Shown here: positions 3,257 through 8,821 of the stretch, piece after piece
Layout of the letters: every line of letters starts with the position of its first letter
How positions within the stretch are numbered: position 1 is the stretch's first letter
DNA from: Candidatus Geocrenenecus huangii
Lineage (GTDB): Archaea; Thermoproteota; Nitrososphaeria_A; Caldarchaeales; Wolframiiraptoraceae
DNA length: 64,000 nucleotides
NCBI GenBank assembly: GCA_023254095.1
Contig: JALNLM010000001.1
Span: forward strand, 96,001-160,000
Reading direction: 5' to 3'
Position numbers and translations under genes: made by a program
Notes under the pieces: model-generated
What the model was told of the DNA's origin: nothing
Databases searched by the model: none
The model's input: the letters and a program-made list of their open reading frames with translations, nothing else

Positions 3257-4678
3257 ATGCCTACACCGATCGGCATTGTATGTAGTGGTGCAAGTGAATC
3301 CAGTGCTACAGTCGTCCTGTATGATGGAATGGAGAAAGAGGTAAAGAATGAGAGCCTAGTCTTGATTAGGAACAGGAATGGGGGAAATGTTTTAGCAGTA
3401 TGTAGGGGAGGTCTAGGTATAAATGAGAGCCTAAGAACTGGAGCGTTCACGCCGGGTGTAGCATATGCGAAGAGTAGGAGAGTACCGAGTAGTGTAAAAG
3501 AATATTTCCTATTCAAGCTACAGGTTATTGGAGAAATAAACGATAATGGGATCTCCCAGAATAAGATTATTATTGCTCCAACATCTACCGTTGAATTATT
3601 CACAGATGAAGACAGCCCTATGCAATATCTTAGCAAAAGCGATCTATACATAGGACACTACTGGGGGAAGCCGAGCTGGAGGGTTCCAGTCTTGAAAGAA
3701 TACATAAACTATCACATAGGAGTATTCGGTATAACAGGTTCAGGCAAAAGCTATCTAACAAGATACGAGATAATTCCTCTACTCCGGAGAGCTGGATATG
3801 ACGTGATAGTCATGGACTGGAAAGGGAGCGACTACGCTACATACTTTGAGTATGTCTTAGCTCTCAACGAGATAAAGGTAGATAACCAGACTGTTGTAAA
3901 ATACTTTAGCAGTATAACTAGAAACTTCGGATACATCGATAGAGAAGAAAACCCTGTGGCCGCAGCAGTTGAAACGTCTTTAAGGCAAGTCGATTGGAGA
4001 GGCAGAAACCCTGAACAAAGCCGTCAACTAGTTCTACAAAGAGCCAAAGCAATCTTAAACGAGTCATCTGGTGTAAAAGAGGAAACTAGGAAGCTCCAAG
4101 TGAGTAGGCTTGAATCGTCTTTCGAAATAATAACCGAGGAAGAATTCGAGAAATTTTTAGGAACAATAGAGCCTTGGGAGATCTTTGCAAAAGCGAAAGA
4201 CAAAGGGATACTCGTTATAGATATGAGTAGGGGGATCAAAGAGCAGAAGCTTGCAGTCTTTCTTGCTATAACGAAGTATTTGAAGCGATTAATGGAGAAT
4301 AAACAAGTCTTGAATATCGCCATAGTTATAGATGAGGGACCACAGTATGCTCCATGGCAACCTAGAGGTATGGAAAGGGATACAACGGACATGATCATGG
4401 AGCTATGTGCTCTAGGTAGAAGTTATGGTCTATCCATAGTAATTTTATCTCAAGGAATGGCTGGAGAGATAGGGTTGAATGCAGCTGTAAGAAGAAATCT
4501 GAATACACAGTTTATTGGGAGGATACATCCATTAGACGTAGAAGAAGCTCAGAAGCTTGCAGCATCATACTATATCTCTCCGGAGACCATGTTGACTCTC
4601 CCCGAAGGACATTTCTACTTCTTGGGTAGAATGAATCCATCTCCAATACCTTTATTGATAAGCTTCCAGATAAGGTAG
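3257..4678 (+). CDS. herA: HerA/FtsK-family ATPase with N-terminal HAS-barrel-like region
   Basis: Walker A GITGSGKS, Walker B IVIDEG, GRSYG, ILSQ; adjacent to nurA. Confidence 0.8.
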   Translation: MPTPIGIVCSGASESSATVVLYDGMEKEVKNESLVLIRNRNGGNVLAVCRGGLGINESLRTGAFTPGVAYAKSRRVPSSVKEYFLFKLQVIGEINDNGISQNKIIIAPTSTVELFTDEDSPMQYLSKSDLYIGHYWGKPSWRVPVLKEYINYHIGVFGITGSGKSYLTRYEIIPLLRRAGYDVIVMDWKGSDYATYFEYVLALNEIKVDNQTVVKYFSSITRNFGYIDREENPVAAAVETSLRQVDWRGRNPEQSRQLVLQRAKAILNESSGVKEETRKLQVSRLESSFEIITEEEFEKFLGTIEPWEIFAKAKDKGILVIDMSRGIKEQKLAVFLAITKYLKRLMENKQVLNIAIVIDEGPQYAPWQPRGMERDTTDMIMELCALGRSYGLSIVILSQGMAGEIGLNAAVRRNLNTQFIGRIHPLDVEEAQKLAASYYISPETMLTLPEGHFYFLGRMNPSPIPLLISFQIR

Positions 4679-4751: not shown

Positions 4752-6038
4752 ATGTTCGAAGAAGAAAAGCCTTCTGCGATGAGTAAGCTTCCCTTCAAAC
4801 TACAAGTTGACCTATACGAGCATGCCAGACAAGCTGCTAGCAGGGTTTTCAAGGAGATCGAAATTGAGAGGGAGAAACTTTCTAGAGTCAACAACTTATT
4901 AAAGTTTAGAGATATACCTGAAGTTTTAAGTAGTAAGGATCTAAGGGTCGGAGCCGTAGATGGGTCTTCATCACCTACGTTCAGCGATAGATTAGGCTAC
5001 AGAATAGGGGTTTATGCAGCATGCTACATTGTCTTTGATGGAAACGAGATAATATCTGACAAGGATGATGAAACGATGGAGGCAGGATACATGATGGTTA
5101 ACCAGGTGGGCGATATAGAGCAGACTAGAAAGATACTTACACTCTTGATGACTGTTAAGGAAAGGGAGAAAGCTCTAAGATGTATTGAAAAATATGATGT
5201 TGACATACTTCTTATCGACGGCTCATTCTACGGTTTCAGGACAAGATGTAGTGAGATAAAGAAGTTAGACTTAGCGGAAATAGGGATAAGCGAGTATAAG
5301 ACTGGGTGGGAATTGATAAATCATGTCTTAAAATCCACTAGGAAGCTCGTCAAGTCAGGTAAAGCCGTAGGTGTAATAAAAAGACTTAGATCATGTGCGA
5401 TAGACGGATGGATCTTATCCAAAACATGGAGTAAAAAATCCATCGTAAATCGTAACGATAGATCTGTACTCCGATCTCTCATGCCCTGTGGGAAATACTT
5501 TGACTATAGAGACATCCATGAAGATGAATGGACCTATCTACACTACAGTAACTTAGTAACATGGTATAAGGAATTAGTCAGGAATCATATAATCAGAGAA
5601 GATTGTACACCAGAAGACAATGTAAAACGTGCTTTCGAGTATGTTCACAGTAAGCTCAAAACTCAGATCGCTACAGATCTCACTCCCCCAAATTCCCACA
5701 ATGAACCGAAGAGCAAGGTAGGCGAAGACCTTGTCAAAGAAATAACTAGTAGACCTAGAATACATGCTAGGCTATCAAGATATGCAGCACCGATCTGCCT
5801 AGAACTAGGTGAGGGGGTAGACCTCGACATAGTATTATCATATAGTTTGAAGAATGTAAACGTAGTGACTGGAATACCTTTCCCGATAGACCTAGTTGAT
5901 GAACAGGTTTCCCTGGAAAAAGAGATAGCGAGAGAGTTCGCGGAAGAGATAGAGACAAGACTGCTACTAGAATCAGAGATATCCTCTGAAGAAGTAGAAG
6001 CTAGACTTGAACCTTTAAATCCCCAGAAAGGAGGATAA
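4752..6038 (+). CDS. nurA: NurA-family nuclease
   Basis: GAVDGS and LLIDGS acidic motifs, GVIKR, C-terminal GIPFPIDLVD. Confidence 0.8.
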   Translation: MFEEEKPSAMSKLPFKLQVDLYEHARQAASRVFKEIEIEREKLSRVNNLLKFRDIPEVLSSKDLRVGAVDGSSSPTFSDRLGYRIGVYAACYIVFDGNEIISDKDDETMEAGYMMVNQVGDIEQTRKILTLLMTVKEREKALRCIEKYDVDILLIDGSFYGFRTRCSEIKKLDLAEIGISEYKTGWELINHVLKSTRKLVKSGKAVGVIKRLRSCAIDGWILSKTWSKKSIVNRNDRSVLRSLMPCGKYFDYRDIHEDEWTYLHYSNLVTWYKELVRNHIIREDCTPEDNVKRAFEYVHSKLKTQIATDLTPPNSHNEPKSKVGEDLVKEITSRPRIHARLSRYAAPICLELGEGVDLDIVLSYSLKNVNVVTGIPFPIDLVDEQVSLEKEIAREFAEEIETRLLLESEISSEEVEARLEPLNPQKGG

Positions 6039-6090
6039 ACATAGATTAAATATTTGCTCTCTACGTAAGTAGAGATAGGGGTGATGCGCT

Positions 6091-7770
6091 CTCGGAAAAT
6101 ATCTAATTACAGCAGCTCTTCCATATTCTTACGCTCCTAGACACTTTGGACATTTAGCTGGGGCGTACCTACCAGCCGACATATTTGCAAGATTCCGTAG
6201 ACTCGTGGGAGATCAGACCGTATTCGTATGTGGTACAGATGAGAACGCAAGCAGCATCGTATTGGAAGCTATTAAACAGAATATGACGCCTAAAGAATTA
6301 TGTGACAAATACTATCCAATACAGAAAGAAGTTTTCGAAAGGCTTGGAATAAGCTTCGACATTTTTTCACGTACTAGTAAGCCTATACATTATGAAGTGG
6401 TTAGAGAATTTTACAAGAAGCTCTGGGACAAAGGGTATATCTATCCCAAAGAGATTAAACAATGGTGGTGCCCTAAAGATAGAATGGTTTTACCCGATAG
6501 ATTTGTGAAGGGAACATGTCCGAGATGCGGCGCAGAAGACCAGTATGGAGATGTATGCGAAGTATGCGGTTCATGGTATGAGTCTTTTGAGCTACTAAAT
6601 CCGAAATGTACATTATGTGGAGGCAAGCCCGAGATAATAGGTAAGACGCACTTCTTCCTAAAGCTCAGCGAATTAACATCTAGGGTACTAGAATATGTTC
6701 GAGATAAGAAACACTGGAGGAAGGCAACATATAATAAGACGATCTCATGGTTAGAGAAAGAAGGATTAAGAGACAAAGATATTACAAGAGATTATGAATG
6801 GGGTCCTCCAGCTCCTTTCCCTAATGCGGAAAACCAGGTTATATACAATTGGGCTGAAAATCTTCTCGGATACGTATCTGCTACAAGGGATTGGGCTGAA
6901 AACGTCTCAAACCGTCCGGATGCATGGAAAGAGTTCTGGATGGATAAAGAGACGAGACTATACTGCTTCATCGGTAAGGATAACCTCTTCTTCCACACTA
7001 TTCTATTCCCAGCTCTACTGATAGCCCATGGAGAATACATTCTACCATACCACGTAGTAGTAAACGAGTTTGTAAACCTAGAAGGTGAGAAACTCTCAAC
7101 AAGCAGAGGATGGGTCATATGGTTACATGACCTACTAGCTGAATATGATCCAGACATTATACGATACTACGCAGCCGCAATCGCTCCTGAAACAAGAGAT
7201 ACAGATTTCAAGTGGCAGGACTTCGCAGAAAAAGTAAATGGAGAATTGATAGGAACCTTAGGCAACTTTATACATCGTGTATTAACATTCCTGCATGAGA
7301 AGATGGGTGGAGTCGTTCCAGACCCGGGAGAACTCGATGAAAGAAGTAAAGAGATGATCAATACATGTTATAGAATAGTTGAAAAATTCAGGAATCATGT
7401 TGAGGCATGCGAATTCAAGGATGGTTTGAAGGAGATACTCCATCTTGCACAGCAAGGAAATAGGTACTTTAATGAAAAATCTCCTTGGAAGAATCTCGAT
7501 GAGGCTCCTAGAACACTATACGTGTTGATACAGATTGTTCACGCTCTGGCTTTAATAATGTCTCCGTACCTTCCATTTACGTCTCAAAGATTACTAGAAT
7601 ACCTTAACATAGACAAGAAAGTTGAAGAACTTAGATGGGGCGATGTCGAGAAGACGATTCCACCGGGCCACAAGATAAGGGAACCAAAACCATTGTTCAA
7701 GAAGGTTGATGAAAAAGATATACGTGAAAAAACAAAAAAGTTGGAAGAAATAAGGAAGAGCTTCAGCTGA
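6091..7770 (+). CDS. metG: Methionyl-tRNA synthetase without C-terminal Trbp domain; start unresolved
   Basis: KYLITAALPY and HFGH (HIGH motif) lie upstream of the track start at 6205; Zn knuckles; KLSTS (KMSKS); in-frame TGA at 6082. Confidence 0.92.
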   Translation, partial: LGKYLITAALPYSYAPRHFGHLAGAYLPADIFARFRRLVGDQTVFVCGTDENASSIVLEAIKQNMTPKELCDKYYPIQKEVFERLGISFDIFSRTSKPIHYEVVREFYKKLWDKGYIYPKEIKQWWCPKDRMVLPDRFVKGTCPRCGAEDQYGDVCEVCGSWYESFELLNPKCTLCGGKPEIIGKTHFFLKLSELTSRVLEYVRDKKHWRKATYNKTISWLEKEGLRDKDITRDYEWGPPAPFPNAENQVIYNWAENLLGYVSATRDWAENVSNRPDAWKEFWMDKETRLYCFIGKDNLFFHTILFPALLIAHGEYILPYHVVVNEFVNLEGEKLSTSRGWVIWLHDLLAEYDPDIIRYYAAAIAPETRDTDFKWQDFAEKVNGELIGTLGNFIHRVLTFLHEKMGGVVPDPGELDERSKEMINTCYRIVEKFRNHVEACEFKDGLKEILHLAQQGNRYFNEKSPWKNLDEAPRTLYVLIQIVHALALIMSPYLPFTSQRLLEYLNIDKKVEELRWGDVEKTIPPGHKIREPKPLFKKVDEKDIREKTKKLEEIRKSFS

Positions 7771-8821
7771 GATTCTTTATACCCAGTTCTTCCATTATCT
7801 TTTCTAAGTCTTCTTCATTGAAAGCTTCCTCTTTCTTCTGGGGTAGTTGGACTTCAGATTCTCTCCGATTTACGCCCGTCAGTATTAACGATACTTGAAG
7901 TCTAGAATCTAGAGAACTATCTATTCTTGCACCCCATATTACTAATGCTTCTTCTCCCATAAGCTCTGAGACTATCTCAGCCGGTCTAGCTGCTTCGCTG
8001 ATCTTCATGTCTTCTCCTCCAGTTACATGTATTATCGCTCCAGTTAAACCATCATACGTTACGTCTAGTAAGGGGCATTCTAATGCATTAAAGGTTGCTT
8101 CTTCTGCTCTATTCGGTGTTGAAGAGACCCCTATGCCGAGCGCCGCTAGGTTTCCTCTCATCATTATTGTTTTGAAATCTGCATAGTCGATGTTGATCAA
8201 GCTTGGCTTAAGTATTGACTCCGTGATACTGAAGATCATGTTGCTTATTACTTCATCGGCTATTGCGAAAGCATTTTTCAAACTATACTGTGGATAGAGT
8301 TCAAGAAGTTTATTATTGTCGATCGCGACGACAGTATGACAGTTACGTTTCATTTCTTCTAAACCTTGTAAAGCTATCCTCTTTCTAACATTCCCTTCGA
8401 ATTTAAATGGGAGAGTTACGAAACCTATAACTACAGCGCCTTCTTCTTTAGCTACTTCAGCCACCAGAGGCGCAGCACCTGTCCCCGTTCCACCTCCTAA
8501 ACCAGCTGAGATGAACACTATATCTGACCCTTCAAGTACTTCTCTAATCTCGTCTATGGATTCTTCAGCCGCTTCCCTTCCTCTTGCGGGGTCTCCACCT
8601 GCACCTCTGAACTTCGTTACGGTTTTTCCAAGGATTAATTTTCGTGGAGCTTTAATTATTTCCAGATGTTGCGCATCTGTATTTGCTGCGATTAGGTTTA
8701 TCCTAGCTAGCTCTAAGCTTGATAACCTATTGACTGTATTACATCCTGCTCCTCCTACGCCTATCAACGTTATCTTTACATCGTTTAAAAACCCTGCATC
8801 AATTAAGATTTCGTCATTCAC
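7763..8821 (-). CDS. ftsZ: Cell division GTPase FtsZ (FtsZ2-like context)
   Basis: GGAGCN, NTDAQ, GGGTGTG, PFKFEG, T7 loop INIDYAD. Confidence 0.96.
   Translation of the reverse strand: MNDEILIDAGFLNDVKITLIGVGGAGCNTVNRLSSLELARINLIAANTDAQHLEIIKAPRKLILGKTVTKFRGAGGDPARGREAAEESIDEIREVLEGSDIVFISAGLGGGTGTGAAPLVAEVAKEEGAVVIGFVTLPFKFEGNVRKRIALQGLEEMKRNCHTVVAIDNNKLLELYPQYSLKNAFAIADEVISNMIFSITESILKPSLINIDYADFKTIMMRGNLAALGIGVSSTPNRAEEATFNALECPLLDVTYDGLTGAIIHVTGGEDMKISEAARPAEIVSELMGEEALVIWGARIDSSLDSRLQVSLILTGVNRRESEVQLPQKKEEAFNEEDLEKIMEELGIKNLS

Follow-up and report, generated by a model that had tools for sequence, protein, structure and literature searches.

Locus and product of metG

The 64,000-nucleotide (nt) stretch of the Candidatus Geocrenenecus huangii genome analysed here (GenBank assembly GCA_023254095.1, contig JALNLM010000001.1, positions 96,001 to 160,000 of the forward strand; the whole of it is referred to as the window, and coordinates are those of the window) contains metG, which encodes methionyl-tRNA synthetase (MetRS). 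An earlier note on this DNA had pointed out that no in-frame ATG, GTG or TTG lies between TGA 6082 and GTG 6205, a segment that includes the HIGH motif, and the sequence agrees. The features of the locus are as follows.

6047..6054, + strand: putative TATA-like box TTAAATAT of the metG promoter (from the sequence and comparison with relatives)
6078..6085, + strand: predicted Shine-Dalgarno (SD) sequence GGGGTGAT, with 8 contiguous pairs (one G-U) to the 16S rRNA 3′ end
6082..6084, + strand: TGA in the metG frame, closing it upstream; the same TGA as in the SD motif GGTGA
6084..6086, + strand: out-of-frame ATG (-1 frame, reading MRSRK...), with its A and T in the SD duplex; probably not used
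6091..6093, + strand: CTC, proposed metG initiation codon (from its spacing of 6 nt after the SD motif, class-wide conservation and homology to canonical starts)
6091..7770, + strand: proposed metG coding sequence, 559 codons plus stop (Pfam; PDB 1rqg_A)
6096..6099, + strand: AAAA run, the slip site proposed in the earlier note; not conserved
6142..6153, + strand: HFGH, the class I synthetase HIGH motif (translation; alignment to 1rqg_A)
6205..6207, + strand: GTG, first canonical in-frame start, use of which would drop the HIGH motif (open reading frame list; Pfam)

Downstream of the TGA the metG frame reads on as TGC GCT CTC GGA AAA TAT CTA ATT ACA, and its translation from that point is CALGKYLITAALPYSYAPRHFGH. 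The open reading frame (ORF) that begins at the first canonical codon (6205..7770) starts downstream of HFGH and lacks positions 1-35 of the PF09334 profile, including this motif. By comparison, the protein begun at CTC matches PF09334 over the whole profile (positions 1-391 at residues 4-398, E 1.3e-140), carries the anticodon-binding domain PF19303 (Anticodon_3) at residues 409-552, and aligns with Pyrococcus abyssi MetRS (query 3-543 against chain 3-552 of 1rqg_A, E 3.1e-155). The product is predicted to be a full class I methionyl-tRNA synthetase with both domains, the N-terminal strand and the HxGH motif included. No second MetRS gene is found in the 1.61-Mb genome (96% complete), in which the other matches are weak paralogues. 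When eight species of the genus are compared, codon positions 1, 2 and 3 vary in 8, 4 and 36, respectively, of the first 39 codons counted from CTC, which argues that the metG frame is the one translated here and that purifying selection acts on this segment. The absence of a canonical metG start is real, beyond chance or error.

Ribosome-binding site and promoter

The 3′ end of the 16S rRNA of this genome is GGATCACCTCCT, and GGGGTGAT is by its pairing a strong SD sequence. The motif GGGGTGA, said earlier to lie 6 nt before CTC 6091, is found at 6078-6084, with CTC 6091-6093 following after 6 nt. The SD motif or its duplex also takes in GTG 6081 and the first two letters of ATG 6084, and a GGTGA placed 6 nt before a start necessarily puts its own TGA in frame with that start. 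This spacing is the common one: on crude ORF calls, GGTGA precedes ATG by 6 nt in 19 cases genome-wide, by 7 nt in 8, by 4 nt in 6 and by 5 nt in 4, GTG and TTG starts likewise peak at 6 nt, and 27 of the 43 matches at that distance are canonical starts. CTC 6091 thus falls exactly at the modal SD spacing of the genome.

The putative promoter was compared at 45 relatives' loci that lack a canonical metG start, of which 14 have only looser A/T-rich boxes and no exact TTWAWW; among the 31 that have this hexamer it ends 23-29 nt 5′ of GGTG in 27. From the geometry of archaeal promoters, metG transcription would begin near 6077, about 0-4 nt before the SD sequence, leaving a leader of 11-15 nt. 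A similar TATA-to-SD distance is also seen at canonical SD-led genes of this genome.

Conservation among Caldarchaeia

The class holds 76 genomes, 67 of which have a metG match, and the 5′ end was collected from 66. Aligning orthologous 5′ ends, as the earlier note had suggested, shows the canonical start to be missing elsewhere as well: in 45 of the 66 genomes no ATG, GTG or TTG occurs in frame from the nearest upstream stop to the first beta-strand of metG. At all 45 loci GGTGN or GGGGA is followed, after exactly 6 nt, by CTC, CTA or, once, TTA. When every class locus with this geometry is counted (n = 55), the codon is CTC in 27, CTA in 27 and TTA in 1. The 6-nt spacer itself varies freely and even includes main-frame stops in its first codon.

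Relatives with canonical starts indicate what the CTN codon corresponds to. In one class member (L077), which reads GGGGGG-ccggaa-GTG-GGC-AAA-TGG, the codon that is CTN in the others is GTG. An outgroup sample of 40 genomes of the phylum, 39 of them scorable, gives the same correspondence: ATG, GTG or TTG stands at the exact CTN position in 21 (for example ATG GGA AAA TAC GTT GTC, or TTG GGT AAA TGG), and a canonical start lies a few codons away in a further 15, one layout being GTG/TTG-AAA-CTC-GGA, which is common to Wolframiiraptor. The remaining three also lack a canonical metG start; two have CTG at the start position (L097 in genome G091; L118 in G077), and the third (L112 in G094) reads GTC-AAA-CTC where its sisters read GTG-AAA-CTC. 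Query residue 3 aligns to residue 3 of P. abyssi 1rqg_A, which places Met1 of that enzyme opposite the CTC codon. These alignments show the CTN codon to be homologous to the canonical start codons of relatives.

Other genes with non-canonical starts

The genome was scanned for GGTGN followed after 5-7 nt by a non-canonical codon heading a long ORF, and the candidates were examined with Pfam and by comparison with relatives. Four genes outside metG show similar behaviour. A sulfite/nitrite-reductase-like gene (Pfam NIR_SIR_ferr and NIR_SIR; contig C1:110042-111520, minus strand; loci L128 and L159-L166) has GGTGA-gagaag-CTC. Among its relatives, found by tblastn, three lack a canonical start and carry CTC or CTA at a distance of 6-7 nt from GGTG, and two have a 5-nt spacer that places the GTG of the SD motif in frame; the frame of this GTG follows the length of the spacer, as expected if the spacer is untranslated. 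An MBL/beta-CASP gene (contig C1:32709; loci L169 and L186-L209) has TTA here, and at the same codon four species have TTA, one TTC, three ATA and the remaining 16 TTG or ATG. A homoserine dehydrogenase gene (contig C1:101320, minus strand; loci L167 and L210-L230, six of which gave no alignment) has CTG here, with CTG in three species, ATT in one and TTG or ATG in 11. In all three of these genes the first canonical start falls after the beginning of the Pfam domains. The fourth is rpoA′, encoding RNA polymerase subunit A′ (contig C2:60126, outside the window; loci L127 and L129-L158), which reads GGTGA-tgtaga-ACG where five sister species have ATG or GTG. Its first canonical start is a TTG at codon 18, inside the conserved IKFGILSP segment.

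The SD-led ORFs of the genome start with ATG in 60 cases, TTG in 23 and GTG in 9. The picture that emerges is of a lineage in which the start site is set by the SD sequence and the identity of the codon is unusually relaxed, with metG as the extreme case, in which an odd start has become fixed class-wide.

The scan also returned candidates of other kinds. In a saccharopine-dehydrogenase-like gene (contig C11:~52942, L168) the Pfam domain precedes any in-frame ATG, GTG or TTG, and a CTG lies 4 nt after GGTGA. Pfam domains likewise precede any such codon in a 2-hydroxyacid dehydrogenase gene (C13:19944, L170) and a PALP-enzyme gene (C1:112984, L176). An HMGL-like gene (contig C23:36412, L173) is matched only from profile position 17, directly after an in-frame stop; the gene may be broken, or a different frame may encode its N-terminus. 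An ABC ATPase, NrfD, a molybdopterin oxidoreductase and an FAD enzyme were rejected as cases of non-canonical starts, a canonical start being present ahead of the Pfam domain in each, and four further candidate ORFs of the scan matched no Pfam family.

Probable initiation at CTC 6091

We consider it probable that metG translation is initiated at CTC 6091 under the direction of the SD sequence. A plausible scenario is that metG is transcribed with a short leader, from the promoter some 27 nt 5′ of the ribosome-binding site, and that GGGGTGAT pairs with the 16S 3′ end and so sets CTC 6091, 6 nt after GGTGA, in the P site, where translation would start. The protein so made would begin (Met or Leu)-G-K-Y-L-I-T-A-A-L-P-Y... 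and would be colinear with the MetRS of other archaea. Probably a weak, non-cognate start can be tolerated because the SD sequence fixes its position, and it may act as a throttle on MetRS synthesis. Three readings had been offered in the earlier note; non-canonical initiation fits all of the comparative evidence, with CTC 6 nt after the SD motif, and it is this one that we retain, whereas a frameshift is poorly supported and an assembly error is rejected (see below).

Several points weigh against this reading. CTC and CTA each have two mismatches to ATG, at positions 1 and 3, and are not near-cognate in the sense of a single mismatch, whereas all prokaryotic start codons that are listed are; to our knowledge neither CUC nor CUA is among the start codons of NCBI table 11. 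The class genomes that share the arrangement are related and are non-independent samples of it. The predicted transcript would begin so close to the SD sequence that a leaderless-type start at its GUG or AUG is physically conceivable. Moreover, aIF1 is reported to discriminate against non-AUG starts in P. abyssi and Sulfolobus solfataricus (PMC6237735). A missing fidelity factor does not explain the CTC start, for aIF1 (PF01253) is present in the genome and ordinary, and has a normal start of its own (GGAGGT, 5 nt, ATG).

A further difficulty lies in the codon itself, which among the 55 loci is never CTT, CTG or TTG. The Leu column of the HxGxL motif of metG has CTT in 22 cases, CTG in 15, CTA in 9, CTC in 8, TTA in 6 and TTG in 5, and other conserved Leu columns of metG take all six Leu codons, with CTT, CTG and TTG used freely. 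If the start were no more than weak, its codon should drift or improve to CTG or TTG, and the constraint is left unexplained by weakness as such. Possible causes of it are selection that holds initiation at a low, fixed rate, and decoding by a Leu-tRNA. As to the latter, CUC, CUA and UUA are the Leu codons that have a Watson-Crick third-base pair with the tRNA-Leu of this genome (GAG, UAG and UAA) and are not near-cognate to the initiator tRNA. Aragorn, run with and without the intron option, reports an ordinary initiator tRNA (A1...U72; an anticodon stem with three G-C pairs), two further CAU tRNAs and ordinary tRNA-Leu with anticodons GAG, UAG, UAA and CAA, and a special tRNA was accordingly rejected as an explanation of the CTC start. 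No initiator-like tRNA-Leu appeared in the two Aragorn runs, which gave differing sets, so that the inventory is incomplete. That the MetRS mRNA of Caldarchaeia is initiated without Met-tRNAi, by an elongator Leu-tRNA on the SD-positioned codon, is a speculative idea that we think improbable. If it were true, MetRS synthesis would continue or rise when charged initiator tRNA is scarce, which would close a homeostatic loop around the enzyme responsible for charging the initiator, and start selection in the class would be set by the SD sequence with codon checking unusually relaxed.

Alternative explanations

Another route into the metG frame would lead from a leaderless-type start, at GTG 6081 or ATG 6084 (both out of frame), through a programmed +1 frameshift no more than four codons later. 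The slip could occur at CGG-AAA-A, at NCU-C/A or directly after the start codon; the first of these is the site from the earlier note, which had suggested a +1 slip at CGG-AAAA-T that was possibly autoregulatory. The out-of-frame ATG described there is indeed found in the -1 frame, which reads MRSRKISNYSSSSIFLRS and then a stop. A -1-frame ATG or GTG is present in every start-less genome, and the transcription start would lie only a few nt upstream, both in favour of this explanation; however, the GTG comes with the SD motif GGTG, as the AT of ATG does with GGTGAT. CGG, the 0-frame codon after TCT, is rare (2.3% of the Arg codons of the genome) and could be a hungry codon, but the site is not kept, sister species having AAA-G, GAG-A, GAA-G or CCG-G, and the GGA-AAA (Gly-Lys) codons vary synonymously in the metG frame. 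Nor is there any class-wide shift or A-site codon, the 0-frame A-site codons including CGG, CGC, CGA, AGC, AAG, AAA and CAC. In 4 of the 45 genomes (L067, L073, L079 and L082) the -1 frame, read from the GTG of the SD motif, is stopped by TAA or TGA ahead of the Leu codon, a proportion close to the chance expectation for an untranslated spacer, although a +1 shift at that stop would restore the frame in these four too. RNAalifold, applied to 36 distinct sequences in three windows around the start, gives 0.0 kcal/mol and no consensus structure (column-shuffled controls, about -0.1). The SD sequence is at initiation distance and does not resemble a closely spaced internal stimulator, and in the sulfite/nitrite-reductase-like gene the frame of its GTG shifts with spacers of 5, 6 or 7 nt. 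The canonical starts of the outgroups, finally, are located at the CTN codon itself. A conserved shift site, an upstream frame open in all carriers and a conserved stimulator, the marks of programmed +1 frameshifting, each appear to be lacking, and we regard this explanation as unlikely.

Initiation at another in-frame non-canonical codon is an alternative with slighter prospects, and we judge it quite improbable. GCT 6088, 3 nt after the SD motif, would make Leu the second residue; the codon before CTN is mostly GCN, GGN, AGC or ACC, whose small residues are of the kind typical at position 2, and in none of the 45 genomes is it a stop, and the Leu codon is kept despite an upstream in-frame GTG, as in the GTG-AAG-CTC of Wolframiiraptor. 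However, the codon before CTN varies widely (GAG, AAG, AAA, AAT, CCT and CAG also occur), a codon free of stops would arise by chance with a probability of about 0.12 on our own estimate (45 x 3/64), and neither ATG, GTG nor TTG (0 of the three) is among the most frequent codons 3 nt after GGTGA genome-wide. ATT 6106, in the first beta-strand, has in its favour that ATT is a known near-cognate start, but relatives have GTT, ATC or another codon there, and a start at this position would cut off the conserved K-Y/W.

A sequencing or assembly error (an AAAA run one base shorter would bring ATG 6084 in frame, and a 1-nt assembly error had been raised as a possibility) or a decaying pseudogene is refuted, as four independent assemblies agree exactly, the same arrangement is kept in 45 of the 66 class genomes, metG is the sole MetRS gene of the genome, and its codon-position variation is that of purifying selection. 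Contigs from four runs of four different studies, two of whose sources are possibly near the source sample, show 0 differences and 0 gaps where they cover positions 5950-6350 (X10 and X11 over the whole stretch, X13 up to 6144, X14 over 6010-6246). Three As at 6096-6099, or a canonical codon at 6091, would have spoken against a missing start; in all contigs compared the run is AAAA and the codon CTC.

Relation to known systems

Initiation at CTC 6091 would have a close parallel in genes with conserved non-canonical starts such as bacterial infC, which has an AUU start and is autoregulated through IF3. Like infC, metG is an essential gene of the translation apparatus that keeps a weak start over the long term behind a normal SD sequence, and expression could be set or regulated in this way. 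The two differ in that AUU is one mismatch from AUG and a listed start, whereas CUC and CUA are two mismatches away and not so listed, and in that the host of metG is an archaeon with the eukaryote-type factors aIF1, aIF1A and aIF2, in which a metG regulatory loop is hypothetical.

The programmed +1 frameshift of prfB (RF2), with its internal SD sequence, CUU slip codon and in-frame UGA, bears a likeness to the metG arrangement in the SD-like element shortly 5′ of a CUN codon, the TGA nearby in frame and the start codon in another frame. However, 3 nt separate the SD sequence of prfB from its slip codon, against the 6 nt of normal initiation in metG; the TGA follows the slip codon in prfB but is inside the SD sequence in metG; and metG, unlike prfB, has no conserved 0-frame ORF.

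The MetRS of P. abyssi (1rqg) shares with the predicted product the HxGH motif, the zinc knuckles and the KxSTS loop region; in the P. abyssi chain a Met stands two residues before the aligned start, and at that codon metG has CTC. Work on SD-led initiation in P. abyssi and S. solfataricus describes an SD/anti-SD duplex that pre-positions the small subunit while the initiator tRNA tests P-site triplets (PMC6237735), much as proposed for metG. There aIF1 destabilises non-AUG complexes (PMC6237735), whereas in metG a non-cognate codon is seemingly the regular start.

Searches of the literature on non-canonical, CUC, CUA or UUA starts, on archaea and on Aigarchaeota turned up no description of this metG feature or of starts at CUC or CUA. 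A 2021 review (PMC8211752) states that in Archaea only elongation and termination had been shown to include non-canonical events, and a term search within two papers on Wolframiiraptor and Geocrenenecus finds no mention of start codons or MetRS (PMC9246946 and PMC12979851).

Consequences for annotation and for start selection

Gene callers that take only ATG, GTG and TTG cut metG by 38 codons, with loss of the catalytic HIGH motif, and the same truncation is to be expected in at least 45 other Caldarchaeia genomes. The genes for rpoA′, homoserine dehydrogenase, the beta-CASP-like enzyme and the sulfite-reductase-like enzyme would be mis-started too. If initiation at CTC holds, a start two mismatches from AUG, present class-wide in the gene whose product charges the initiator, would fall outside the accepted set of prokaryotic start codons. 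It would also provide a natural system for learning how far SD positioning overrides codon checking by the eukaryote-type factors aIF1 and aIF2, and would allow a test of whether a weak start regulates MetRS.

Among the other ORFs of the window, those that flank metG at 3257-4678 (+), 4752-6038 (+) and 7763-8821 (-) resemble, by eye, a HerA-type ATPase, a NurA-type nuclease and FtsZ, respectively.

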